Shown here in pieces: positions 2,962 through 61,708 of a stretch of 64,000 bases of DNA; the stretch's first letter is position 1, and every line of letters begins with the position of its first letter. Below the pieces are notes generated by a model. The model saw nothing but the letters and a program-made list of their open reading frames with translations, ran no database searches and was not told the origin of the DNA. The DNA is from Escherichia coli (GTDB taxonomy: Bacteria > Pseudomonadota > Gammaproteobacteria > Enterobacterales > Enterobacteriaceae). The stretch lies in NCBI RefSeq assembly GCF_003334355.1, contig NZ_QOWP01000020.1. One strand, 5' to 3'. Made by a program: the position numbers and the translations under genes.

Positions 2962-3966
<1,005 letters not shown>

Positions 3967-4199: not shown

Positions 4200-5432
4200 A
4201 TGATTACGCACAACTTCAATACCCTGGACTTACTCACCAGTCCTGTCTGGATCGTTTCGCCCTTTGAGGAACAGTTAATTTATGCCAATAGCGCGGCGAA
4301 ACTGTTGATGCAAGACCTCACGTTTAGTCAGCTACGAACCGGACCCTATTCCGTCTCCTCACAAAAAGAACTGCCGAAATACCTCTCCGATCTGCAAAAC
4401 CAACACGATATTATCGAAATCCTCACTGTTCAGCGTAAAGAAGAGGAAACAGCATTGAGCTGTCGGCTTGTTTTGCGAAAGCTGACAGAAACAGAACCGG
4501 TGATTATTTTCGAAGGTATCGAAGCGCCGGCAACGCTGGGTTTAAAAGCCAGTCGCTCGGCAAATTATCAGCGCAAAAAACAAGGTTTTTATGCGCGCTT
4601 TTTTCTGACTAACTCTGCACCAATGTTGTTGATTGACCCGTCACGAGATGGACAAATCGTCGATGCTAACCTCGCCGCGCTCAATTTCTATGGTTATAAC
4701 CATGAAACGATGTGCCAGAAACATACCTGGGAAATAAATATGCTCGGGCGTCGCGTCATGCCTATCATGCATGAAATCTCGCATTTACCCGGTGGTCATA
4801 AACCTTTGAATTTTGTTCATAAACTGGCGGATGGTTCGACTGGTCATGTGCAGACCTATGCCGGACCGATTGAAATTTATGGCGACAAGCTCATGTTATG
4901 TATTGTGCATGATATTACTGAGCAAAAACGGCTGGAGGAGCAGCTGGAACATGCTGCTCACCATGACGCGATGACCGGATTACTGAATCGGCGACAGTTT
5001 TATCACATTACGGAACCAGGCCAAATGCAGCATCTCGCCATCGCTCAGGATTACAGCTTGTTGCTCATCGACACCGATCGTTTTAAACACATTAACGATC
5101 TCTATGGGCATTCTAAAGGTGATGAGGTGTTATGCGCCCTCGCCCGCACCCTCGAAAGTTGCGCTCGCAAAGGCGATTTGGTGTTTCGTTGGGGAGGCGA
5201 AGAGTTTGTCTTATTGCTACCAAGAACCCCACTGGATACCGCGCTTTCGCTGGCTGAAACTATCCGCGTAAGCGTGGCAAAAGTGAGTATTTCGGGCTTA
5301 CCACGCTTTACCGTCAGCATTGGTGTGGCGCATCACGAAGGAAATGAAAGCATCGATGAACTGTTTAAACGCGTTGATGATGCTTTGTATCGGGCGAAAA
5401 ATGATGGACGCAACCGCGTGCTGGCGGCATAA
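4200..5432 (+). CDS. dgcM: diguanylate cyclase DgcM (PAS-GGDEF)
   Basis: ORF 4140..5432; likely start is the ATG at 4200 (MITHNFNTLDL...); GGEEF motif present (RWGGEEFVLLL). Confidence 0.9.
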   Translation: MITHNFNTLDLLTSPVWIVSPFEEQLIYANSAAKLLMQDLTFSQLRTGPYSVSSQKELPKYLSDLQNQHDIIEILTVQRKEEETALSCRLVLRKLTETEPVIIFEGIEAPATLGLKASRSANYQRKKQGFYARFFLTNSAPMLLIDPSRDGQIVDANLAALNFYGYNHETMCQKHTWEINMLGRRVMPIMHEISHLPGGHKPLNFVHKLADGSTGHVQTYAGPIEIYGDKLMLCIVHDITEQKRLEEQLEHAAHHDAMTGLLNRRQFYHITEPGQMQHLAIAQDYSLLLIDTDRFKHINDLYGHSKGDEVLCALARTLESCARKGDLVFRWGGEEFVLLLPRTPLDTALSLAETIRVSVAKVSISGLPRFTVSIGVAHHEGNESIDELFKRVDDALYRAKNDGRNRVLAA

Positions 5433-5452
5433 GCCGCGGATGCGTCTCGAGA

Positions 5453-6016
5453 TCAACGACTGCGCTTAGCGTGGCGCTCCCAGTTTTCTTGCTTCGCCTG
5501 CGCCGTTTTACGTAGTGCGACGTAACACGCCCCGCTGCCGCCATGATGCGGTAGCGCGGTGCAATATGCCTGAACATCATCAAATTCGGTCAGCCAGCGC
5601 GCCACATAGCTGCGGACAATATTGGCATGCGATTTATCATCCCGCCCTTTACCATGAATAATCAGCACGTTACGCAAACCATCCGCCAGGGCTTGTTGAA
5701 TAAAACTGAACACCATTTTGCGGCACTCTTCCACCGGCTGGCGCAAAAGATTCAGGCTCGCCTGTTGCGGATATTTACCACTGCGCAGCTTATCCAGCAC
5801 CCCATGTTGCAACCCTTCCCGCCGAAACTCCAGCGGCTGACTTAGTGGGATGATGTCGAGAAATCCGGTGGTGAGGAAATTATCAAGCTGCAGCGTGTCG
5901 ATACGCTGCGGCGCACGTTGGTTACGCGTTGGATGCCAGTGGACATCGGTAGCACGTTTCAGCGGCTGGACATCTTCCATGGCGTCAAGAAACAGCGATT
6001 TGTCGTCAAGGTTCAT
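5453..6016 (-). CDS. smrA: Smr-domain DNA endonuclease SmrA
   Basis: 187-aa ORF with C-terminal Smr domain (LIIHGKGR...); matches E. coli SmrA/YdaL. Confidence 0.88.
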   Translation of the reverse strand: MNLDDKSLFLDAMEDVQPLKRATDVHWHPTRNQRAPQRIDTLQLDNFLTTGFLDIIPLSQPLEFRREGLQHGVLDKLRSGKYPQQASLNLLRQPVEECRKMVFSFIQQALADGLRNVLIIHGKGRDDKSHANIVRSYVARWLTEFDDVQAYCTALPHHGGSGACYVALRKTAQAKQENWERHAKRSR

Positions 6017-6179
6017 GTTACATCCTCCCGCAATTAAGAGCGCGATATGATAACCAGACCGGGTCGGTCCAACAACGTATTACCCAAATTTCCAGTAATA
6101 AGTTCCAAATATTGCCGATATTTTAAGCAAAATACTTATGCATGATTATTCATTCACGATATTAATAATGTAACTTATA

Positions 6180-6337
6180 TTTTCGTGAAATCTGTCACTG
6201 AAGAAAATTGGCAACTAAAGGTTAAAACCGTTATAACACAGTCACCGGCGCAGAGGAGACAATGCCGGATTTAAGACGCGGATGCACTGCTGTGTGTACT
6301 GTAGAGTCTGGCGGATGTCGACAGACTCTATTTTTTT
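6180..6337 (+). ncRNA. isrA: candidate small RNA (IsrA-like) ending at an intrinsic terminator
   Basis: Plus-strand hairpin tagagtctggcggatgtcgacagactcta (6302-6330) followed by ttttttt, with no plus-strand CDS upstream. I recall a small RNA (IsrA/IS061) in the abgR-ydaL spacer of K-12. The 5' end is a guess. Confidence 0.35.
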
Positions 6338-6345
6338 ATGCAGTT

Positions 6346-7254
6346 TTAACTTTGCAGATAGCCGCATTCTCGCCGGAATTGCGTGATTAATGACGCGGTC
6401 AGTGGTGTCTGGCGACTATCACGCCGCTGAATCAAATAATAGGCCGCTTTCGGTAAAATTTCGCTAACCGGCAACATCACCAGCCCCTGTCCGTGCAAGG
6501 GATCGCAGCCCATTTCTTCAGGCAGTATGCTGAGAAAATCGCTTTTTGCCACCAGACTGATACAGGCTGAGAACGTCTCGCAGACTACACCGACCTGTGG
6601 CGTTTGCGCCTGATCGTCAAGCAATTCACTCAACTGTTTGTAGTAACTGCCGTGTGGCGTCGGCATTGTCCAGCTGTAATCCAGTAACTGTTTGATCGAA
6701 CGGGCACCAATGGCGGGGTGTCCCGGGCGGCAAAAGATCGCGAATTGCTTTTCCAGTAATTTCTCAAAAGTAAATTCGTGGTCGTACGGTCCCTGATAAT
6801 AGGTATTGATGGTGAAATCCAATTCTCCCTGACGCAATTCATTAATCATCGACACCAGTTGCCCTTCCATAATGCGTACTTTTACCTGCGGATGCTGCTG
6901 ATGAAAACGAGATATGACAGCTGGCATCAGACTGCGGGAAATACTGGCCCCCATGCCGATATTAATCTGCCCTGCCAGTTGCCCTTGTCGTTGGCGAATA
7001 TCCTCTTGGGCTGCGCGCAGCTCTTCAAGAATAAGACTGGCGTGCTGATAAAAACTTTCACCGGCATCAGTTAACGTCACGCCTTTACTACGGCGAAAAA
7101 AGAGTTGCGCCGCTAACCCTTCTTCCAGCTCCTGAATAGATTTACTCAGTGCCGGTTGCGACATATTCAACATTCGGCTCGCTCCGCGAATGCTGCCCTG
7201 ACGAGCCACTTCAACAAAAGCCCGAATTTGATGAATTTTTACCTGAAAAGCCAT
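6346..7254 (-). CDS. abgR: LysR-family transcriptional regulator AbgR
   Basis: 302-aa ORF with N-terminal LysR HTH; divergent from abgA. Confidence 0.92.
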   Translation of the reverse strand: MAFQVKIHQIRAFVEVARQGSIRGASRMLNMSQPALSKSIQELEEGLAAQLFFRRSKGVTLTDAGESFYQHASLILEELRAAQEDIRQRQGQLAGQINIGMGASISRSLMPAVISRFHQQHPQVKVRIMEGQLVSMINELRQGELDFTINTYYQGPYDHEFTFEKLLEKQFAIFCRPGHPAIGARSIKQLLDYSWTMPTPHGSYYKQLSELLDDQAQTPQVGVVCETFSACISLVAKSDFLSILPEEMGCDPLHGQGLVMLPVSEILPKAAYYLIQRRDSRQTPLTASLITQFRRECGYLQS

Positions 7255-7429
7255 GACGCCACCGATAACCGTTATTTATCAGACCAAAGAAACTGGCATC
7301 TACTTTAATGCAGATGATTGTGTCAGGGTAATTTATGAACGGTTAAAACTGTGAAAAATCAGTTAGTGATAAGTAAAAACTATCGCTACGTGAACCGGGT
7401 CACACTTTTTACTGATGACGGGAAAGGTT

Positions 7430-8740
7430 ATGGAGTCTTTGAATCAATTTGTTAATTCGCTTGCCCCAAAATTATCGCACTGGCGACGTGATTTTCATCA
7501 CTATGCAGAGTCTGGCTGGGTGGAATTCCGCACTGCCACCCTTGTTGCGGAAGAATTGCAGCAGCTCGGCTATTCACTGGCGCTGGGCCGCGAAGTAGTT
7601 AATGAAAGTAGCCGGATGGGACTACCTGATGAACTCACTCTACAACGCGAATTCGAGCGCGCTCGTCAACAGGGTGCGCTAGCACAATGGATTGCGGTTT
7701 TTGAAGGTGGTTTCACGGGTATCGTCGCCACCCTGGATACCGGTCGCCCCGGTCCGGTGATGGCTTTCCGTGTCGATATGGACGCGCTGGATCTCAGTGA
7801 AGAGCAGGATGTCAGCCATCGCCCCTACCGCGACGGTTTTGCGTCATGTAACGCCGGAATGATGCATGCCTGTGGTCATGATGGACATACCGCCATTGGG
7901 CTTGGGCTGGCGCATACCCTTAAACAATTCGAGTCCGGACTACATGGCGTCATCAAACTGATTTTTCAGCCTGCAGAGGAAGGTACGCGTGGCGCGCGGG
8001 CGATGGTCGATGCAGGTGTCGTAGATGATGTTGATTATTTTACTGCCGTGCACATTGGCACTGGCGTACCTGCGGGCACCGTGGTGTGCGGCAGTGATAA
8101 TTTTATGGCAACCACCAAATTTGACGCGCACTTCACCGGTACCGCCGCTCACGCAGGCGCAAAACCAGAAGACGGTCACAATGCCTTGTTGGCGGCAGCA
8201 CAAGCCACTCTTGCACTGCATGCAATCGCCCCGCACAGCGAAGGAGCTTCCAGAGTAAACGTGGGCGTTATGCAGGCAGGAAGCGGTCGTAACGTTGTTC
8301 CTGCCTCGGCGTTGCTGAAAGTGGAAACACGCGGGGCCAGCGACGTCATTAATCAATATGTTTTTGACCGTGCACAACAAGCGATTCAGGGCGCAGCAAC
8401 CATGTATGGTGTCGGCGTTGAAACTCGTCTGATGGGTGCAGCTACCGCCAGTTCTCCTTCGCCGCAATGGGTCGCATGGTTGCAAAGTCAGGCGGCTCAG
8501 GTCGCGGGGGTCAATCAGGCCATTGAACGTGTTGAAGCGCCTGCGGGTTCCGAAGATGCCACATTAATGATGGCCCGCGTGCAGCAACATCAAGGGCAAG
8601 CCTCCTACGTGGTGTTTGGCACACAGCTGGCGGCAGGTCATCACAACGAAAAATTCGATTTTGACGAGCAGGTTCTCGCTATTGCCGTCGAAACGCTGGC
8701 GCGCACCGCGCTCAATTTTCCCTGGACGCGAGGTATCTGA
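7430..8740 (+). CDS. abgA: p-aminobenzoyl-glutamate hydrolase subunit A (M20 peptidase)
   Basis: ORF 7415..8740; likely start ATG at 7430 (MESLNQF...) after ggaaagg RBS; M20 amidohydrolase family. Confidence 0.92.
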   Translation: MESLNQFVNSLAPKLSHWRRDFHHYAESGWVEFRTATLVAEELQQLGYSLALGREVVNESSRMGLPDELTLQREFERARQQGALAQWIAVFEGGFTGIVATLDTGRPGPVMAFRVDMDALDLSEEQDVSHRPYRDGFASCNAGMMHACGHDGHTAIGLGLAHTLKQFESGLHGVIKLIFQPAEEGTRGARAMVDAGVVDDVDYFTAVHIGTGVPAGTVVCGSDNFMATTKFDAHFTGTAAHAGAKPEDGHNALLAAAQATLALHAIAPHSEGASRVNVGVMQAGSGRNVVPASALLKVETRGASDVINQYVFDRAQQAIQGAATMYGVGVETRLMGAATASSPSPQWVAWLQSQAAQVAGVNQAIERVEAPAGSEDATLMMARVQQHQGQASYVVFGTQLAAGHHNEKFDFDEQVLAIAVETLARTALNFPWTRGI

Positions 8741-10185
8741 TGCAGGAAATCTATCGTTTTATCGACGATGCGATTGAAGCCGATCGCCAACGTTATACCG
8801 ATATTGCCGATCAAATCTGGGATCATCCAGAAACACGTTTTGAAGAGTTCTGGTCAGCGGAGCATCTGGCTTCGGCGCTGGAATCTGCAGGCTTCACCGT
8901 TACCCGCAACGTAGGCAATATCCCAAATGCCTTTATTGCTTCGTTTGGTCAAGGCAAACCGGTTATCGCCCTGCTGGGAGAATATGACGCCCTGGCAGGT
9001 TTAAGTCAGCAAGCTGGTTGCGCGCAACCTATATCCGCGACGCCCGGTGAAAATGGTCACGGTTGCGGACACAATTTGCTGGGAACCGCCGCCTTTGCCG
9101 CTGCAATAGCCGTCAAGAAATGGCTGGAACAATATGGGCAAGGCGGCACAGTGCGCTTTTATGGTTGTCCTGGCGAAGAAGGCGGCTCGGGTAAAACGTT
9201 CATGGTCCGCGAGGGGGTATTTGATGATGTGGATGCGGCACTCACCTGGCACCCGGAAGCCTTTGCCGGCATGTTCAATACCCGCACGCTGGCAAACATT
9301 CAGGCATCATGGCGCTTTAAAGGGATCGCAGCACATGCCGCGAATTCCCCTCATTTGGGACGCAGCGCCCTTGATGCCGTAACGTTGATGACCACTGGCA
9401 CCAACTTCCTCAACGAACATATTATTGAAAAAGCGCGCGTACACTATGCCATCACAAATAGCGGCGGGATCTCACCCAACGTGGTCCAGGCGCAGGCAGA
9501 AGTGCTTTATCTTATCCGCGCCCCCGAAATGACCGACGTGCAGCATATTTATGATCGGGTCGCCAAAATCGCCGAAGGTGCGGCATTGATGACCGAAACC
9601 ACGGTTGAATGCCGCTTCGACAAAGCCTGTTCCAGTTATCTCCCGAATCGCACCTTAGAAAATGCCATGTACCGAGCCCTATCCCATTTTGGTACCCCGG
9701 AATGGAACTCCGAAGAACTGGCTTTTGCGAAACAAATTCAGGCTACGCTCACCTCCAACGATCGGCAAAACAGTCTGAATAATATCGCCGCAACCGGTGG
9801 CGAAAACGGCAAGGTTTTTGCACTACGTCATCGTGAAACGGTACTGGCGAATGAAGTCGCTCCATATGCCGCCACCGATAACGTGCTTGCAGCATCGACA
9901 GATGTCGGCGACGTCAGTTGGAAACTGCCTGTTGCCCAGTGTTTCAGCCCCTGTTTTGCCGTCGGTACACCGCTACATACGTGGCAACTGGTTAGCCAGG
10001 GGCGAACATCTATTGCTCATAAAGGAATGCTGCTCGCGGCGAAAACTATGGCTGCAACCACAGTCAATCTCTTCATTGATTCAGGGCTATTGCAAGAATG
10101 CCAACAAGAGCATCAGCAAGTTACGGACACGCAACCGTATCACTGCCCTATCCCGAAAAACGTGACACCGTCACCTTTAAAATAA
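8740..10185 (+). CDS. abgB: p-aminobenzoyl-glutamate hydrolase subunit B (M20 peptidase)
   Basis: 481-aa ORF; start overlaps the abgA stop (ATGA coupling); M20 family. Confidence 0.92.
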   Translation: MQEIYRFIDDAIEADRQRYTDIADQIWDHPETRFEEFWSAEHLASALESAGFTVTRNVGNIPNAFIASFGQGKPVIALLGEYDALAGLSQQAGCAQPISATPGENGHGCGHNLLGTAAFAAAIAVKKWLEQYGQGGTVRFYGCPGEEGGSGKTFMVREGVFDDVDAALTWHPEAFAGMFNTRTLANIQASWRFKGIAAHAANSPHLGRSALDAVTLMTTGTNFLNEHIIEKARVHYAITNSGGISPNVVQAQAEVLYLIRAPEMTDVQHIYDRVAKIAEGAALMTETTVECRFDKACSSYLPNRTLENAMYRALSHFGTPEWNSEELAFAKQIQATLTSNDRQNSLNNIAATGGENGKVFALRHRETVLANEVAPYAATDNVLAASTDVGDVSWKLPVAQCFSPCFAVGTPLHTWQLVSQGRTSIAHKGMLLAAKTMAATTVNLFIDSGLLQECQQEHQQVTDTQPYHCPIPKNVTPSPLK

Positions 10186-10218
10186 CAACAACGCAAACAC
10201 AACAACCGAGGAATGTCC

Positions 10219-11745
10219 ATGAGTATGTCATCCATACCGTCATCCTCCCAATCCGGGAAGCTCTATGGCTGGGTCGAAAGAATTGGTAACAAGGTTCCCC
10301 ATCCTTTTTTGCTCTTTATCTATTTGATTATCGTACTCATGGTGACGACGGCAATTTTGTCGGCCTTTGGCGTCAGTGCGAAAAACCCGACCGATGGTAC
10401 GCCGGTCGTGGTGAAAAACCTGCTCAGTGTGGAAGGATTACACTGGTTTTTACCCAATGTTATTAAAAACTTTAGCGGTTTTGCCCCACTTGGCGCGATC
10501 CTGGCGCTGGTTTTAGGTGCCGGTCTGGCGGAGCGCGTCGGCTTACTGCCAGCGCTAATGGTTAAAATGGCATCGCATGTTAATGCCCGCTACGCCAGTT
10601 ATATGGTGCTGTTTATTGCTTTTTTCAGCCACATTTCTTCCGATGCGGCGTTAGTGATCATGCCACCGATGGGTGCGCTGATTTTTCTGGCGGTGGGCAG
10701 ACATCCAGTTGCAGGTTTACTGGCCGCCATTGCAGGCGTAGGTTGCGGCTTTACGGCTAATTTACTGATTGTCACAACCGACGTGTTGCTGTCGGGGATC
10801 AGCACGGAAGCGGCGGCTGCGTTCAATCCGCAAATGCACGTCAGTGTAATTGATAACTGGTATTTTATGGCCAGCTCCGTAGTCGTACTGACGATTGTTG
10901 GCGGCCTGATAACCGACAAAATCATCGAACCACGGTTAGGTCAATGGCAGGGAAACAGCGATGAGAAACTGCAGACATTGACCGAAAGTCAGCGTTTTGG
11001 TTTACGCATAGCAGGTGTCGTATCGCTACTTTTTATTGCTGCGATTGCGCTGATGGTGATCCCGGAAAACGGGATATTGCGCGATCCGATTAATCACACC
11101 GTGATGCCATCACCCTTTATTAAAGGTATCGTGCCACTGATCATTCTTTTTTTCTTTGTGGTCTCGCTGGCTTATGGCATCGCTACTCGCACAATTCGAC
11201 GTCAGGCGGATTTACCGCATTTAATGATTGAACCGATGAAAGAGATGGCGGGATTTATCGTGATGGTTTTTCCCCTCGCCCAGTTTGTCGCCATGTTTAA
11301 CTGGAGCAACATGGGGAAATTCATCGCCGTGGGGCTGACCGATATACTGGAAAGTTCAGGGCTTAGCGGCATCCCGGCGTTTGTCGGTCTGGCGTTGCTT
11401 TCCTCTTTCTTATGCATGTTTATCGCCAGCGGTTCCGCAATCTGGTCGATTCTGGCCCCCATTTTCGTACCAATGTTTATGCTACTTGGCTTTCACCCGG
11501 CATTTGCGCAAATCCTCTTTCGTATTGCCGACTCATCCGTATTGCCTTTAGCGCCAGTATCTCCTTTTGTTCCACTGTTTCTTGGATTCCTGCAACGCTA
11601 CAAACCAGACGCGAAACTGGGTACTTACTATTCGTTAGTCTTGCCCTATCCACTTATCTTTTTGGTGGTATGGCTGCTGATGTTGCTGGCGTGGTATCTT
11701 GTCGGTCTGCCGATAGGTCCGGGTATTTACCCACGTTTGTCTTAA
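10219..11745 (+). CDS. abgT: p-aminobenzoyl-glutamate transporter AbgT
   Basis: Polytopic membrane protein of the AbgT family; start chosen at the second ATG (MSMSSIPSS...). Confidence 0.92.
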
Positions 11746-11755
11746 GAGAGAACGG

Positions 11756-12271
11756 ATGCTGAGATTACTTGAAGAAAAAATTGCCACGCCACTGGGTCCA
11801 CTGTGGGTGATTTGCGATGAGCAATTTCGCCTGCGGGCGGTTGAATGGGAAGAGTACAGCGAACGCATGGTGCAGCTGCTGGACATCCATTATCGCAAAG
11901 AAGGCTATGAGCGCATTTCTGCCACCAATCCAGGCGGTTTAAGCGACAAGCTTCGTGAATATTTTGCCGGTAATCTTAGCATTATTGATACGCTTCCCAC
12001 TGCTACGGGGGGGACGCCATTTCAGCGCGAAGTCTGGAAAACACTACGCACTATCCCCTGCGGGCAGGTAATGCATTACGGCCAACTGGCTGAGCAATTG
12101 GGCCGTCCTGGCGCGGCGCGTGCCGTTGGTGCGGCAAACGGATCGAATCCCATCAGCATCGTCGTACCTTGCCATCGGGTTATTGGCCGAAACGGCACCA
12201 TGACCGGATATGCAGGCGGAGTTCAGCGAAAAGAGTGGTTATTGCGCCATGAAGGTTATCTTTTGCTGTAA
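11756..12271 (+). CDS. ogt: O6-alkylguanine-DNA alkyltransferase Ogt
   Basis: 171-aa ORF with active-site PCHRV motif. Confidence 0.94.
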
Positions 12272-12432
12272 ACATTAAACAATTTGTGCCAGCTTGTTCA
12301 CACTTTTATGTAAAGTTACCCTTAGCAACTTAAGGGTTTTCAAATAGATAGACATATATTTACATCTAATATCGGAATTCTCTGCTGTTAAGGTTTGCTT
12401 AGGCTTACTTGCTCCCTAAAAAGATGTTAAAA

Positions 12433-12446
12433 TTGACAAATATCAA
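12433..12446. promoter_or_regulatory. FNR-box-like palindrome in the fnr promoter region
   Basis: ttgacaaatatcaa is close to the FNR consensus TTGAT-N4-ATCAA, about 20-30 nt upstream of the fnr start; consistent with known fnr autoregulation. Confidence 0.6.
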
Positions 12447-12465
12447 TTACGGCTTGAGCAGACCT

Positions 12466-13218
12466 ATGATCCCGGAAAAGCGAATTATACGGCGCATTCA
12501 GTCTGGCGGTTGTGCTATCCATTGCCAGGATTGCAGCATCAGCCAGCTTTGCATCCCGTTCACACTCAACGAACATGAGCTTGATCAGCTTGATAATATC
12601 ATTGAGCGGAAGAAGCCTATTCAGAAAGGCCAGACGCTGTTTAAGGCTGGTGATGAACTTAAATCGCTTTATGCCATCCGCTCCGGTACGATTAAAAGTT
12701 ATACCATCACTGAGCAAGGCGACGAGCAAATCACTGGTTTCCATTTAGCAGGCGACCTGGTGGGATTTGACGCCATCGGCAGCGGCCATCACCCGAGCTT
12801 CGCGCAGGCGCTGGAAACCTCGATGGTATGTGAAATCCCGTTCGAAACGCTGGACGATTTGTCCGGTAAAATGCCGAATCTGCGTCAGCAGATGATGCGT
12901 CTGATGAGCGGTGAAATCAAAGGCGATCAGGACATGATCCTGCTGTTGTCGAAGAAAAATGCCGAGGAACGTCTGGCTGCATTCATCTACAACCTGTCCC
13001 GTCGTTTTGCCCAACGCGGCTTCTCCCCTCGTGAATTCCGCCTGACGATGACTCGTGGCGATATCGGTAACTATCTGGGCCTGACGGTAGAAACCATCAG
13101 CCGTCTGCTGGGTCGCTTCCAGAAAAGCGGCATGCTGGCAGTCAAAGGTAAATACATCACCATCGAAAATAACGATGCGCTGGCCCAGCTTGCTGGTCAT
13201 ACGCGTAACGTTGCCTGA
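12466..13218 (+). CDS. fnr: fumarate/nitrate reduction global regulator FNR
   Basis: ORF 12409..13218; true start ATG at 12466 ([29 protein letters not shown]...), 250 aa; N-terminal Cys cluster plus CRP-type HTH. Confidence 0.96.
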
Positions 13219-13369
13219 TTTTTCCGCATAACTCACTATCCTTCTGTCATATCATTAAATTTTTCTGATTTATTGATCTGGCAGAAGGTTCATCACTGTT
13301 TCATTCACCAGATATGGGTTAATCTTTTAATTACAAACTGCGTTGACAGTTGTTGTAAGGAGACCCTGT

Positions 13370-14320
13370 ATGGCTATGTATCAGAACATGCTCGTTGTTA
13401 TCGATCCTAACCAGGACGACCAACCAGCATTGCGGCGAGCTGTTTATTTACATCAACGGATTGGTGGCAAAATTAAAGCCTTTTTGCCGATCTATGACTT
13501 CTCATACGAAATGACCACCCTGCTCTCCCCGGACGAACGTACCGCTATGCGTCAGGGCGTCATCAGCCAGCGTACAGCCTGGATCCACGAGCAGGCAAAA
13601 TATTATCTCAATGCTGGCGTTCCCATTGAAATTAAAGTGGTCTGGCATAACCGTCCTTTCGAAGCCATCATTCAGGAAGTGATCAGCGGCGGGCACGATT
13701 TGGTGCTAAAAATGGCGCACCAACATGACCGTCTGGAAGCGGTGATTTTTACGCCAACGGACTGGCATCTGTTACGCAAATGCCCAAGCCCGGTGTGGAT
13801 GGTGAAAGACCAGCCGTGGCCGGAAGGAGGTAAGGCGCTGGTGGCGGTGAATCTCGCCAGTGAAGAGCCGTATCATAATGCGCTCAATGAAAAACTGGTC
13901 AAAGAGACGATCGAACTGGCAGAACAAGTCAACCATACCGAAGTTCATCTGGTTGGCGCTTACCCAGTAACGCCAATTAATATCGCGATTGAACTGCCGG
14001 AATTTGATCCGAGCGTTTATAACGATGCCATTCGTGGGCAACATTTGCTGGCAATGAAAGCCCTGCGGCAGAAATTCGGCATTAATGAAAACATGACGCA
14101 CGTAGAAAAAGGTCTGCCAGAAGAGGTGATTCCTGATTTGGCGGAGCACTTACAGGCGGGGATTGTGGTTCTGGGCACGGTAGGACGCACCGGTATTTCA
14201 GCAGCATTCCTCGGCAACACGGCGGAACAGGTGATTGATCATCTTCGCTGCGACCTGCTGGTCATTAAACCTGACCAGTATCAGACACCCGTTGAACTGG
14301 ATGACGAAGAAGACGATTAA
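13370..14320 (+). CDS. uspE: tandem universal stress protein UspE
   Basis: ORF 13343..14320; likely start ATG at 13370 ([13 protein letters not shown]...), 316 aa; two Usp domains. Confidence 0.93.
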
Positions 14321-58158: not shown

Positions 58159-58965
58159 ATGATCGAAACGCTGCTTGAAGTGCGTAATTTAAGTAAAACG
58201 TTCCGCTACCGGACCGGCTGGTTTCGTCGTCAGACCGTAGAAGCGGTAAAACCCTTGAGCTTTACGCTACGTGAAGGCCAGACACTGGCGATTATTGGCG
58301 AGAATGGTTCGGGTAAATCCACGCTGGCAAAAATGCTGGCGGGAATGATAGAGCCTACCAGCGGCGAGTTATTGATTGACGATCATCCGCTGCATTTTGG
58401 CGATTATTCCTTCCGCAGTCAGCGTATTCGCATGATTTTTCAGGATCCTTCGACCTCGTTGAATCCCCGTCAACGTATCTCGCAAATTCTGGATTTTCCA
58501 TTGCGTCTGAACACCGACCTGGAACCGGAACAGCGTCGCAAACAGATTATTGAAACGATGCGTATGGTTGGGCTGCTACCGGATCACGTCAGTTACTATC
58601 CGCATATGTTGGCACCCGGGCAAAAACAGCGTCTGGGTCTGGCGCGCGCGCTGATATTGCGCCCAAAAGTCATTATTGCCGATGAAGCCCTCGCTTCACT
58701 GGATATGTCGATGCGTTCGCAGTTGATTAATCTGATGCTGGAATTACAGGAAAAACAGGGCATTTCGTATATTTATGTTACCCAGCATATCGGAATGATG
58801 AAGCACATTAGCGACCAGGTGCTGGTGATGCATCAGGGCGAGGTTGTCGAGCGAGGCAGCACCGCGGATGTGCTGGCATCGCCGCTGCATGAACTCACCA
58901 AACGGCTGATTGCCGGTCATTTTGGCGAGGCATTGACGGCGGATGCGTGGCGTAAAGATCGCTAA
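58159..58965 (+). CDS. sapF: ABC ATPase SapF
   Basis: 268-aa ORF with Walker A GENGSGKST. Confidence 0.94.
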   Translation: MIETLLEVRNLSKTFRYRTGWFRRQTVEAVKPLSFTLREGQTLAIIGENGSGKSTLAKMLAGMIEPTSGELLIDDHPLHFGDYSFRSQRIRMIFQDPSTSLNPRQRISQILDFPLRLNTDLEPEQRRKQIIETMRMVGLLPDHVSYYPHMLAPGQKQRLGLARALILRPKVIIADEALASLDMSMRSQLINLMLELQEKQGISYIYVTQHIGMMKHISDQVLVMHQGEVVERGSTADVLASPLHELTKRLIAGHFGEALTADAWRKDR

Positions 58966-59032
58966 TTTTCTGAATCCTCCTTCCAGATTATTCACCTCAT
59001 TCTGACAAAAGATTAAATCTTGTCAGAATGAG

Positions 59033-59479
59033 GTGATAGATAAAATTAAATCAAATGCGCGTGATTTAAGACGCAATCTCACTTTGCAGGAACGAAAGCT
59101 CTGGCGATATCTTCGCAGCCGACGTTTTAGTGATTTCAAATTTCGCCGTCAACATCCAGTGGGGAGCTACATTCTCGATTTTGCTTGCTGCTCGGCGCGT
59201 GTAGTCGTTGAGCTGGATGGTGGGCAGCATGATTTAGCAGTTGCCTATGATTCCAGGCGCACTAGCTGGCTTGAGTCGCAGGGCTGGACCGTGCTGCGTT
59301 TCTGGAATAACGAGATTGATTGTAATGAGGAGACGGTGCTGGAGAATATTCGGCAAGGTCTGAACCGTCCCAGCCATCGCCATGAAAGGGTTAGGGGCTG
59401 TATGAGCCTGTTTGTTGCTGGGGTAACAATATTTGCACAATACGGTCCCCTCGCCCCTCTGGGGAGAGGGTTAGGGTGA
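59033..59479 (+). CDS. ycjD: DUF559 endonuclease-like domain protein (YcjD-like)
   Basis: ORF with a Vsr/DUF559-like core (...VVELDGGQHD...). The 148-aa reading frame continues into the GC-rich repeat at 59440-59500, so the C-terminus is probably extended relative to K-12 YcjD (about 117 aa by my recollection). Confidence 0.7.
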   Translation: MIDKIKSNARDLRRNLTLQERKLWRYLRSRRFSDFKFRRQHPVGSYILDFACCSARVVVELDGGQHDLAVAYDSRRTSWLESQGWTVLRFWNNEIDCNEETVLENIRQGLNRPSHRHERVRGCMSLFVAGVTIFAQYGPLAPLGRGLG

Positions 59480-59512
59480 GGGGAAAAGCGCCCCCCCCTG
59501 CCGCAGCCTGCT
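59441..59512. repeat. GC-rich repetitive element (boxC-like) upstream of fabI
   Basis: ggtcccctcgcccctctggggagagggttagggtgaggggaaaagcgcccccccctgccg is an imperfect palindrome of the kind described as boxC in the envM/fabI region. Confidence 0.5.
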
Positions 59513-59648
59513 CCGGTCGGACCTGGCAACTATAGCTACTCACAGCCAGGTTGATTATAATAACCGTTTATCTGTTCGTACTGTTTACTAAAACGACGAA
59601 TCGCCTGATTTTCAGGCACAACAAGCATCAACAATAAGGATTAAAGCT

Positions 59649-60437
59649 ATGGGTTTTCTTTCCGGTAAGCGCATTCTGGTAACCGGTGTTGCCAGCAAAC
59701 TATCCATCGCCTACGGTATCGCTCAGGCGATGCACCGCGAAGGAGCTGAACTGGCATTCACCTACCAGAACGACAAACTGAAAGGCCGCGTAGAAGAATT
59801 TGCCGCTCAATTGGGTTCTGACATCGTTCTGCAGTGCGATGTTGCAGAAGATGCCAGCATCGACACCATGTTCGCTGAACTGGGGAAAGTTTGGCCGAAA
59901 TTTGACGGTTTCGTACACTCTATTGGTTTTGCACCTGGCGATCAGCTGGATGGTGATTATGTTAACGCCGTTACCCGTGAAGGCTTCAAAATTGCCCACG
60001 ACATCAGCTCCTACAGCTTCGTTGCAATGGCAAAAGCTTGCCGCTCCATGCTGAATCCGGGTTCTGCCCTGCTGACCCTTTCCTACCTTGGCGCTGAGCG
60101 CGCTATCCCGAACTACAACGTTATGGGTCTGGCAAAAGCGTCTCTGGAAGCGAACGTGCGCTATATGGCGAACGCGATGGGTCCGGAAGGTGTGCGTGTT
60201 AACGCCATCTCTGCTGGTCCGATCCGTACTCTGGCGGCTTCCGGTATCAAAGACTTCCGCAAAATGCTGGCTCATTGCGAAGCCGTTACCCCGATTCGCC
60301 GTACCGTTACTATTGAAGATGTGGGTAACTCTGCGGCATTCCTGTGCTCCGATCTCTCTGCCGGTATCTCCGGTGAAGTAGTCCACGTTGACGGCGGTTT
60401 CAGCATCGCTGCAATGAACGAACTCGAACTGAAATAA
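59649..60437 (+). CDS. fabI: enoyl-ACP reductase FabI
   Basis: 262-aa ORF; matches E. coli FabI. Confidence 0.97.
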
Positions 60438-60483: not shown

Positions 60484-60580
60484 TGTTATACCTTTCTGAT
60501 ATTTGTTATCGCCGATCCGTCTTTCTCCCCTTCCCGCCTTGCGTCAGGATAACGATTTCCTTTACGACCAAGGAGCGCCC

Positions 60581-61708
60581 ATGGAACAACGCCACATCAC
60601 CGGCAAAAGCCACTGGTATCATGAAACGCAATCCAGTACTGCGGAGTATGACGTTCTGCCTCTGGTCCCGGAAGCCGCAAAGGTCAGCGATCCCTTTCTG
60701 CTCGACGTGATCCTTGATGAAGAAACGCTGGCTCCCTTCCTTTCATGGCTGGTCCCTGCGCGCGTTCTTGCAGTGGAATTGTTCCCTGACCAGCTTACCG
60801 TGACCCGTTCACAGACCTTCACCGCTTATGAACGCTTGTCTACGGCCCTGACGGTTGCTCAGGTTTGCGGCGTCCAGCGGTTATGTAACTACTATTCGGC
60901 GCGACTTACGCCGCTCCCCGGGCCTGATTCCTCCAGGGAAAGCAATCATAGGTTGGCACAAATCACGCAATATGCCCGCCAACTGGCTAGCTCGCCTTCT
61001 ATTATCGACAACCGATCGCGCCAGCATCTGAATGACGTCGGTCTTACTGCCTGGGACTGTGTGATCATTAACCAAATCATTGGTTTTATTGGCTTTCAGG
61101 CGCGGACCATTGCGACATTTCAGGCTTATCTCGGGCACCCGGTACGCTGGTTACCCGGTCTGGAAATACAAAACTACGCCGACGCGTCACTGTTTGCTGA
61201 TGAATCAATACGCTGGCGAAGCAGCTATGAGGTGGAAAAACTACCTGAAGAGTACACAAAAAGTTCAACTGCAGAACTTTGCCAACTGGCCGAAACACTC
61301 TCTCTCCACCCTATTTCACTTTCCCTTCTCGAAAGGTTGTTAAACAGTACACGGGTTAATACACAGCCGGATAATAAGCTTGCGGCGTTGTTATGCGCGC
61401 GGATAAATGGCAGTCCTGCTTGTTTTGCCGCCTGTATGGATTCATCAAATGAATATAAAAAAATCAGCGCTCTTGTGCGCAAGGGCGAAAATGAAATTAA
61501 CCAATGGGCTGACCGTCATTCTGTTGAGCACGCTACCGTTCAGGCGATACAATGGCTGACCCGAGCACCCGATCGCTTTAGCGCCGCCCAGTTCAGCCCT
61601 TTACTCGAACACGAAAAATCATCAACGCAGATTATTAATCTGCTGGTATGGAGCGGGCTGTGTGGCTGGATAAATCGCTTAAAAATCGCGTTGGGTGAGA
61701 CATATTAA
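60581..61708 (+). CDS. yciW: YciW (AhpD/CMD-like oxidoreductase family)
   Basis: ORF 60503..61708; likely start at 60581 (MEQRHITGK...) after aggagcg RBS; 375 aa. Confidence 0.88.

Follow-up and report, generated by a model that had tools for sequence, protein, structure and literature searches.

A rare deletion allele of ycjD that ends in a BoxC repeat of Escherichia coli, and triplex motifs as the flank of YcjD-family genes

In a 64,000-nt stretch of an Escherichia coli genome (assembly GCF_003334355.1, contig NZ_QOWP01000020.1; hereafter the window), the genes run in the order sapD-sapF-ycjD-fabI-yciW, and the reading frame of ycjD, which encodes a small DUF559 protein, extends into a GC-rich repeat of the BoxC family that lies upstream of fabI. 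In the list of open reading frames (ORFs) this frame occupies positions 59033-59479 of the plus strand and comprises 148 codons, from a GTG start at 59033 to a TGA at 59477-59479. We consider it highly probable (about 0.88) that ycjD of the window is a rare derived deletion allele, that the BoxC copy beside it is unchanged, and that triplex motifs of this kind are a conserved flank of YcjD-family genes.

An earlier note on this DNA had the DUF559 frame continuing about 30 codons beyond its expected 117-aa end, and the comparison with K-12 bears this out: YcjD has 117 amino acids (aa) in K-12 and 148 aa in the window, a difference of 31 codons, and the reference protein thus shares neither the length nor the C-terminus of the window protein. 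The two are identical over residues 1-107 (...NEETVLENI) and diverge thereafter, so that the gene's 3' end does differ from K-12 as the note had supposed; K-12 continues with LQELNRRSPSP and a stop, the window with RQGLNRPSHRHERVRGCMSLFVAGVTIFAQYGPLAPLGRGLG and a stop. Residues 108-148 of the window protein are therefore a 41-residue substitute for the native LQELNRRSPSP. This tail is repeat-encoded, as had also been proposed, in that BoxC supplies its last 10 codons and a second, degenerate BoxC supplies codons 113-122, and the stop TGA at 59477-59479 sits in the third block GGGTGAGGG of the repeat CCCTCGCCCCTCTGGGGAGAGGGTTAGGGTGAGGGG (59448-59483).

Ahead of the tail, the DUF559 body with its Vsr-like nuclease fold is intact. 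The window protein scores 261.4 bits against the NCBIfam equivalog NF007294 (cut-off 218) over residues 1-117, and it retains all of D49, E60, D62, H66, R89, W91 and N92 (K-12 numbering), which are invariant in the family alignment. Close YcjD homologues carry PF04480 and PF18741, the sole solved relative is PDB 3HRL (family profile E 4e-42), and YcjD has been placed among the members of the PD-(D/E)XK superfamily (Feder and Bujnicki, 2005). In PSS-12, HS and FDAARGOS_1058, PGAP labels the identical allele a pseudogene, with the remark "missing C-terminus".

The repeat is a BoxC/PIT/TMECO element of type A with one mismatch, and on the plus strand it consists of a C-block CCCTCGCCC, the loop CTCTG, a G-block GGGAGAGGG, the loop TTA and a second G-block GGGTGAGGG followed by G. 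It fits the pattern CCCTCNCCC-N3-6-GGGNGAGGG-N3-GGGNGAGGG[GTC-] of Holder et al. (2015; PMC4666352), and its 36-mer is identical, letter for letter, to TMECO no. 9 of K-12 (type A mm, antisense, 1,351,239-1,351,204; Table 1, PMC4666352), which stands at the same place relative to fabI. The GC-rich imperfect palindrome that had been noticed in the 3' part of the ORF is thus located at 59448-59483, with inverted arms at 59446-59456 and 59474-59484, and its boxC-like identity rests on an exact match. Holder et al. (PMC4666352) regard TMECO as one with both the BoxC repeat known from the 1990s and the potential intrastrand triplex (PIT) elements that Hoyne and Maher (2000, 2002) described, and according to them BoxC was first described in the envM (= fabI) sequence paper of Bergler et al. 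(1992); given this and the match to TMECO no. 9, the copy upstream of fabI is the family's archetype. DUF559 goes unmentioned in Holder et al. (2015; PMC4666352), where ycjD is listed solely in a table of flanking genes.

The element is dispersed in the genome and single in the window. A 37-mer of the repeat occurs once in the window (0 expected; 100 shuffles), and 59448-59483 is the only match of a generic triplex detector in the 64 kb, while 23 copies are reported from K-12 and 19 from HS (Holder et al., 2015; PMC4666352) and a 661-nt query containing BoxC finds a median of four places per E. coli genome by megablast. The block pattern and the detector match would be compatible with an intrastrand purine-motif triplex (G*G, A*A and T*A triads), and evidence for a triplex from circular dichroism and nuclear magnetic resonance exists for this type of sequence (Holder et al., 2015; PMC4666352). 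In K-12, BoxC is intergenic, 167 nt from ycjD, and in the window allele it lies inside the ORF and supplies its stop; this is because of a deletion and not because a different element is present. The suggestion that the repeat had changed the end of the gene accordingly does not hold, as BoxC has the same place and an identical sequence in K-12 and the cause is a loss of 106 bp upstream of it. BoxC itself is an already catalogued copy that has neither moved nor altered. The locus resembles others with these elements in that it rearranges between strains, as Holder et al. associate with such motifs (PMC4666352), and differs in that the copy lies in an ORF rather than between genes. Directly after BoxC there is a poly-C tract (59491-59498, plus strand) with eight C in the window and seven in K-12 and the other alleles examined, which is likely a slippage-prone site.

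Pairwise, multiple and four-way alignments all place the difference between the window and K-12-type strains in 106 bases that the window lacks. At the recombination joint (59329-59351, plus strand) the window has one copy of the 23-nt sequence GGAGACGGTGCTGGAGAATATTC, of which K-12-type genomes have two, 106 bp apart; in K-12, where the distance from start to start is likewise 106, the first copy lies within ycjD (codons ETVLENI) and the second past its stop, followed by diverged last codons. The divergent alleles of N96 and CH4796 reveal an imperfect tandem duplication of a unit made up of the ycjD 3' end, an antisense BoxC and the spacer GGGGGCTGTATG.GCCTGTTTGTTGCTG, in which the duplicated part of ycjD amounts to its last ~15 codons. 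Most E. coli with ycjD have this duplicate module (~106 bp) after the gene, then the sense BoxC no. 9 and the presumed fabI promoter region. The window retains the vestigial 3' end of the duplicated module at 59352-59398 (plus strand; RQGLNRPSHRHERVRG), including a degenerate antisense BoxC at ~59368-59398 whose loop TGA is out of frame, and this segment is homologous to ...ILQELSRLLPSP with its stop plus CCCTCTCCCTGAAAGGGC.GGGGGC in module 2 of N96 and to module 1 of all alleles. It is followed in the module spacer by a weak terminator-like hairpin with a T-rich run (59395-59419, plus strand; GGGCTGTATGAGCCT GTTTGTTGCT; from a pattern scan), which now lies within the ORF and whose sequence occurs in both N96 modules.

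These features indicate that homologous recombination or replication slippage between the identical 23-nt stretches removed 106 bp, which brought the vestigial second 3' end in frame directly behind codon 107 of the intact DUF559 body and left one hybrid module. Translation would then pass through the degenerate BoxC and the spacer and stop at the TGA in the third block of the sense BoxC. Because of old indels the vestige's own stop, the TGA in its BoxC loop, is out of frame, and the frame therefore stays open until the TGA of BoxC no. 9. In its 23 nt of perfect identity, 106-bp unit, hybrid junction and recurrence on separate haplotypes, the event resembles the loss of a copy from other short tandem duplications, with the difference that the duplicated unit here holds a triplex motif reported to raise local instability.

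To survey the distribution of the deletion, we used a 43-nt junction probe, which at the E-value used matches the deleted form only, against 5,426 complete E. coli genomes. It is present in 44 of them (0.8%), including HS, NCTC86, PSS-12 and a set of ST167 (sequence type 167) NDM isolates; apart from these, every one of the 3,346 genomes with ycjD is covered in two pieces, the two-module state. Two-module alleles are found in K-12, AR_0162, S1-NGR and CH4796, in the divergent N96 and in cq9, and the protein of E. ruysiae ends in SPSPQPSP, like those of the two-module alleles. The window allele agrees with the K-12 haplotype at 14 of 14 flanking single-nucleotide polymorphisms. FDAARGOS_1058, CE0026f, CE0032f and N51 carry the same deletion on another haplotype; there, 13 of 15 sites in the FDAARGOS_1058-type allele agree with the two-module cq9 haplotype, and the crossover falls within the repeat. 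Given its rarity, and two haplotypes that each match a two-module one, these comparisons indicate that the deletion is derived and has arisen at least twice.

The same observations bear on the opposite polarity, in which the one-module state of the window is ancestral and the K-12 type arose by an insertion or duplication of 106 bp that shortened the K-12 protein. Both states exist, and the 23-nt direct repeat around 83 bp could be the footprint of a duplication. Such a history is nonetheless very improbable, and already largely refuted, as the one-module state is confined to 0.8% of genomes and occurs on two haplotypes that are each otherwise identical to a common two-module one; the divergent N96, the ST69-like CH4796 and the E. 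ruysiae protein show two modules or a module-1-type C-terminus, and orthologues of other genera end in PSPRPSP, like module 1 and unlike the tail of the window protein.

The C-termini of YcjD are variable throughout E. coli. Databases hold forms of 112, 117, 120, 134, 144, 147/148 and 159/160 aa, all differences between them being due to indels and frameshifts within the BoxC sequences or close by, and some forms read through both modules to end at the second antisense BoxC (...SLSPQPSP). An ORF longer by 12 nt has been noted in ST69 and ST182 in the paper on eefRABCD (PMC12817139); these 12 nt correspond to a complete antisense BoxC coding for SPSPQPSP, from which K-12 has lost 12 nt. Against this variability, we find it scarcely credible that the longer tail of the window protein is a selected functional extension, for example through a hydrophobic segment CMSLFVAGVTIFAQY that alters localisation. 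Its repeated origin, at least twice, and its persistence in lineages such as HS, NCTC86 and ST167 would fit selection, but the repeat structure alone predicts recurrence, the tail is decoded from sequence that is vestigial or non-coding, the C-termini vary freely and the allele has a frequency of 0.8%. Most probably, these 41 residues are a neutral by-product of the deletion.

In other repeat families (REP), mRNAs are stabilised by GC-rich hairpins at their 3' ends, and this, together with the position of the element between ycjD and fabI on the same strand, would agree with a role of BoxC as RNA, whether by terminating or stabilising the ycjD transcript or by attenuating read-through into fabI, with its placement in the ORF altering fabI expression. 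We regard such a role, which had been suggested for this repeat at the outset, as improbable. A promoter and terminator scan returned no terminator-like site at 59448-59483, the sole plus-strand candidate in the ycjD tail being the weak one at 59395-59409. The Watson-Crick fold of BoxC is unremarkable relative to shuffles (z -2.0 as DNA, -1.3 as RNA), so nearest-neighbour folding gives a conventional hairpin role no support, and Rfam returned nothing on the motifs in E-value mode over 58900-59700 or in gathering mode on 11 related loci. According to Holder et al. (PMC4666352), Hoyne and Maher (2002) observed no promoter or terminator activity of these elements.

The upstream region of fabI points in the same direction. 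A conserved block (59526-59648, plus strand) is present in all 5,426 genomes and starts 43 nt downstream of BoxC, and fabI retains it where eefRABCD replaces the whole ycjD/BoxC segment; genomes without ycjD match the query from position 527 on only, with which the O157 sequence agrees. The block contains TATAAT at 59556-59561 and presumably holds the fabI promoter and leader. BoxC is best understood as an element that acts at the level of DNA, an intrastrand purine-motif triplex or a hairpin that promotes local instability, and not as a regulator of fabI. The sapF-fabI interval (58966-59525 in the window, the left edge being approximate) has two alternative contents in E. coli: ycjD with BoxC modules in ~62% of complete genomes, and a 9-kb efflux island of the eefRABCD type on the opposite strand in ~38%. 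The O157 island (4788-14000 in the retrieved locus) contains an IS1203 insertion and pseudogenes, and its right-hand junction corresponds to window position 59526. This alternative has been published, in a paper in which the BoxC at the junction goes unmentioned (PMC12817139).

The association between BoxC and ycjD extends well beyond this locus. Even the normal K-12 C-terminus, SPSP before the stop, is coded by a degenerate antisense BoxC, and BoxC-encoded ends of YcjD take the forms PSPRPSP, PSPQPSP and SPSP, of which PSPRPSP results when GGGAGAGGG-CCG-GGGTGAGGG is read antisense, the stop falling in the first loop. Among 114 homologue tails with a recognisable domain end, 69 have PSPxPSP (mostly PSPRPSP directly before the stop) and 95 some motif-encoded peptide. 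We analyzed 80 YcjD-family loci from species-representative genomes, taken as the best tblastn matches to K-12 YcjD and hence concerning this subfamily rather than all of DUF559, with locus search patterns drawn from the conserved domain core and not from the tail. The motif detector, which we made ourselves and tuned on the motif as it occurs in E. coli, asks for a pyrimidine arm of 8 nt, a purine arm complementary to it and a third block mirroring the purine arm (G*G, A*A, T*A), with at most one mismatch each, and its background is 0 in Markov-resampled loci and 0.081 per kb at more than 1 kb from the gene. A 3' motif (starting between -60 and +150 nt of the domain end) is found at 61 of 79 loci (binomial tail 1e-91) and an upstream motif (ending at most 300 nt from the gene) at 49 of 78 (2e-55), both at a frequency ~60-fold over background.

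The arrangement of these motifs is as consistent as their presence. The 3' element is antisense in 50 of 61 cases and the upstream element sense in 38 of 49, and the G-rich blocks therefore face the gene from both sides; motifs occur on both sides at 41 of the 80 loci (33 contexts), +/- pairs enclose the gene in 27, and the stop codon lies in the motif or within 30 nt of it at 41 of 61. Counted as genomic contexts, of which the 80 loci represent 58 distinct ones, the 3' motif is present in 43, the 5' motif in 40 and both in the same locus in 33. Block sequences vary by taxon around a constant three-block logic: CCCTCTCCC/GGGAGAGGG/GGGTGAGGG in enterics, CCTTCCCCC/GGGGGAAGG/GGATGGGGG in some metagenome-assembled genomes (MAGs) of Nitrosomonadales and Gallionellaceae, and CCCTCCCT/AGGGAGGG in the AT-rich Gastranaerophilales. 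At most of the 19 loci scored as negative, the motif is the same but its second loop is longer. This loop has grown to 15-60 nt at the 3' ends of genes in several taxa (loci L018, L022, L025, L050, L052, L057, L065 and L080), and such copies evade strict triplex detectors with all three blocks kept, sometimes with a small palindrome nested in the loop (e.g., cggcgctgacgcgccgg in L025).

A sample drawn from the motif side gives a similar picture. In 120 metagenomic contigs (1.32 Mb) with 163 strict TMECO matches, there are five YcjD-like genes, four of which have a motif 0-17 nt from their 3' end; against a background of ~10%, DUF559 is the only ORF cluster enriched beside the motifs. Triplex motifs are a conserved flank of YcjD-family genes, and BoxC is not a chance neighbour of ycjD.

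Several points weigh against the account given so far. RecA-dependent recombination and replication slippage are not separable by sequence, and the 148-aa product is a prediction from an ORF whose start codon a hairpin of -30 kcal/mol sequesters. In E. coli, and in the orthologues of other enterobacteria, the motif is found on the 3' side only, the upstream one being absent. Selection of loci by their match to K-12 YcjD, whose SPSP end is repeat-encoded, could slightly favour tails encoded by motifs. Of the 19 loci whose match ends at or before residue 112, 12 still have a strict 3' motif, and both the upstream enrichment and the motif-first sample are independent of this selection. Synteny of the enterobacterial orthologues between sapF and fabI had been expected, and none of those returned is located there.

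What the coupling of gene and repeat means can be put only tentatively. The motif(+)-gene-motif(-) geometry is shared by convergent BoxC pairs that enclose no gene and lie in intergenic regions of K-12; these pairs, e.g., hrpB-mrcB, ygfF-gcvP and alx-sstT, each consist of one type-A and one type-B copy, and where enterobacterial ycjD genes end in a type-B copy, this has an outer extension, TTTTCTCCCTCTCCC, in common with the dispersed type-B copies. A gene with inverted flanking motifs might accordingly be a "master" unit, of which convergent pairs and solo motifs would be non-autonomous derivatives. By analogy with REP/RAYT, BoxC/PIT/TMECO may possibly, though with less than even odds, be the cognate DNA elements of YcjD-family DUF559 (Vsr-like PD-(D/E)XK) endonucleases, in a selfish or domesticated system that would range over Enterobacteriaceae, Xanthomonadaceae, Comamonadaceae, Nitrosomonadales, Deltaproteobacteria, Chloroflexi and Gastranaerophilales. 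We are equally guarded about the step at its centre, that the nuclease might act on the motifs.

The analogy between this nuclease-repeat relationship and that of REP/RAYT is a plausible one. As in REP/REPIN with RAYT (TnpA-REP), an old and usually single-copy gene of nuclease type is bracketed, here at 41 of the 80 loci, by inverted short structured repeats, and the repeat is also dispersed between genes as singlets and inverted pairs, with ~1 gene per 20-40 repeats. In contrast, RAYT is an HUH Y1 transposase whereas YcjD is a DUF559 / PD-(D/E)XK protein, Vsr-like, so that YcjD is not a RAYT and is only possibly analogous to one; REP is a simple hairpin and the motif at YcjD a three-block triplex motif; and enterobacterial ycjD, including that of the window, is not bracketed, as its motif is on the 3' side only. 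YcjD is similar to Vsr/DUF559 endonuclease-like proteins in its match to the family hidden Markov model and in its conserved acidic and histidine residues, but differs from Vsr, which has an adjacent cytosine methyltransferase, in that none was seen beside ycjD. PADLOC gave no meaningful match to a defence system. A gene resembling an insertion sequence and transposing recently was considered and rejected: paralogues in four MAGs are diverged and share the motifs alone, and active transposition is unlikely because paralogues within one genome are old and have only the motifs in common.

The main rival to action of the nuclease on the motifs is that their adjacency has nothing to do with nuclease action, the motifs being expression or insulation (boundary) elements, or new copies inserting beside old ones and accumulating there. 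This is somewhat doubtful, at odds a little lower than those of nuclease action. The motifs do form clusters and arrays near the gene (a Neisseria array; -+ and +- pairs), and the diverged paralogues within one genome, sharing motifs alone, would be expected from it. Adjacency unrelated to the nuclease sits less well with an arrangement as specific as G-blocks toward the gene on both sides and a stop in or within 30 nt of the motif at 41 of 61 loci, with its recurrence in at least 33 unrelated contexts from Enterobacteriaceae to Gastranaerophilales while the block sequence changes by taxon, or with the lack of any other gene family enriched beside the motifs.

Motif counts in E. coli strains, for which we take the phylogroups to be as assigned here, can be read both ways. 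According to Table S7 of Holder et al. (PMC4666352), most ycjD-bearing strains of groups A, B1 and C have 19-30 motifs (UMNK88, of group A, has 13), those of B2 have 1-2 and those of D, E and F have 6-15; the status of ycjD, carried by A, B1 and C, is known by phylogroup and not strain by strain (PMC12817139). The retention of 6-15 motifs in phylogroups without ycjD speaks for adjacency unrelated to the nuclease, and the drop from 19-30 (13 in UMNK88) to 1-2 in B2 speaks against it, though it follows the phylogeny. The relation of motif counts to the presence of ycjD is suggestive, and confounded by phylogeny.

Other loci of the family add observations of their own. A DUF559 gene of N. gonorrhoeae, a relative of 3HRL, is surrounded by copies of a local variant of the motif, and downstream of it (1993-2688 of locus L096) an array with a period of ~281 nt alternates sense and antisense triplex-type motifs, CTCTCTCCC-TGT-GGGAGAGAG-CTA-GAGAGAGGG and CCCTCCCCC-GT-GGGGGAGGG-CTG-GGGAGAGG. 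On one metagenomic contig (L129, 2436-5045), a TMECO-adjacent DUF559 ends a frame of 870 codons whose N-terminal part resembles the methylase subunit of a type I restriction-modification system, and this may reflect a fusion or simply a frame free of stops. A tblastn search of plasmids, with 35 records of which many are chromosomes or chromids filed as plasmids, gave no clear evidence of plasmid-borne spread; ycjD-like copies on K. pneumoniae pVA126-339 and on a Lelliottia plasmid have frameshifts or stops and retain flanking BoxC-type motifs.

At the other end of the gene, the sapF-ycjD gap contains a near-perfect hairpin of ~20 bp (58992-59036, plus strand; ttcacctcattctgacaa...ttgtcagaatgaggtga) whose 3' arm holds the GTG at 59033. 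Its RNA fold reaches -30.1 kcal/mol (z -6.7; 0 of 200 shuffles as good), and both arms score as promoter-like. Hairpins of the same type (ttctgNc...gNcagag) stand directly before the ATG where Enterobacter, Pluralibacter and Lelliottia have orthologues at unrelated loci, accompanied by a second small hairpin (CTGGAAG...CTTCCAG), and a related hairpin follows sapF even in O157, which lacks ycjD. The hairpin before ycjD may lock translation of the nuclease gene, or may mark where the enterobacterial unit has its left end. On the far side of fabI, the next gene, yciW (CMD domain), is marked incomplete by PGAP in PSS-12 (3082-3661 of locus L001), which is 100% identical over the query, and in the window its frame (60503-61708) is open for 401 codons.

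The local event is itself of little consequence, being an ordinary repeat-mediated variant that is visible in databases solely as a pseudogene call. It explains that call by PGAP in HS, NCTC86 and some ST167 strains, and the locus provides a clean natural case of recurrent deletion at a tandem duplication that contains BoxC. The presence of BoxC no. 9 here was already known, as was the alternative of eefRABCD and ycjD (PMC12817139). The coupling of BoxC with the ycjD family is unexpected, and this wider result matters more than the local event; we found no link between DUF559/YcjD and BoxC/PIT/TMECO in the searchable literature, a scope outside which the papers of Hoyne and Maher fall. To our knowledge, no origin, mobiliser or function has been assigned to BoxC since 1992, and tests of the repeat by itself for a function have been negative. 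A conserved, oriented tie across phyla to a small family with a nuclease fold offers a concrete candidate partner protein, and the question of BoxC therefore becomes directly testable. The coupling explains the frequent ends of the PSPxPSP and PLPxGEG types in YcjD-family proteins. If nuclease and repeat do form one system, this would be the first hypothesis for DUF559/YcjD, a widespread family of "unknown function", and the coupling may tell who spreads repeats of the BoxC type.

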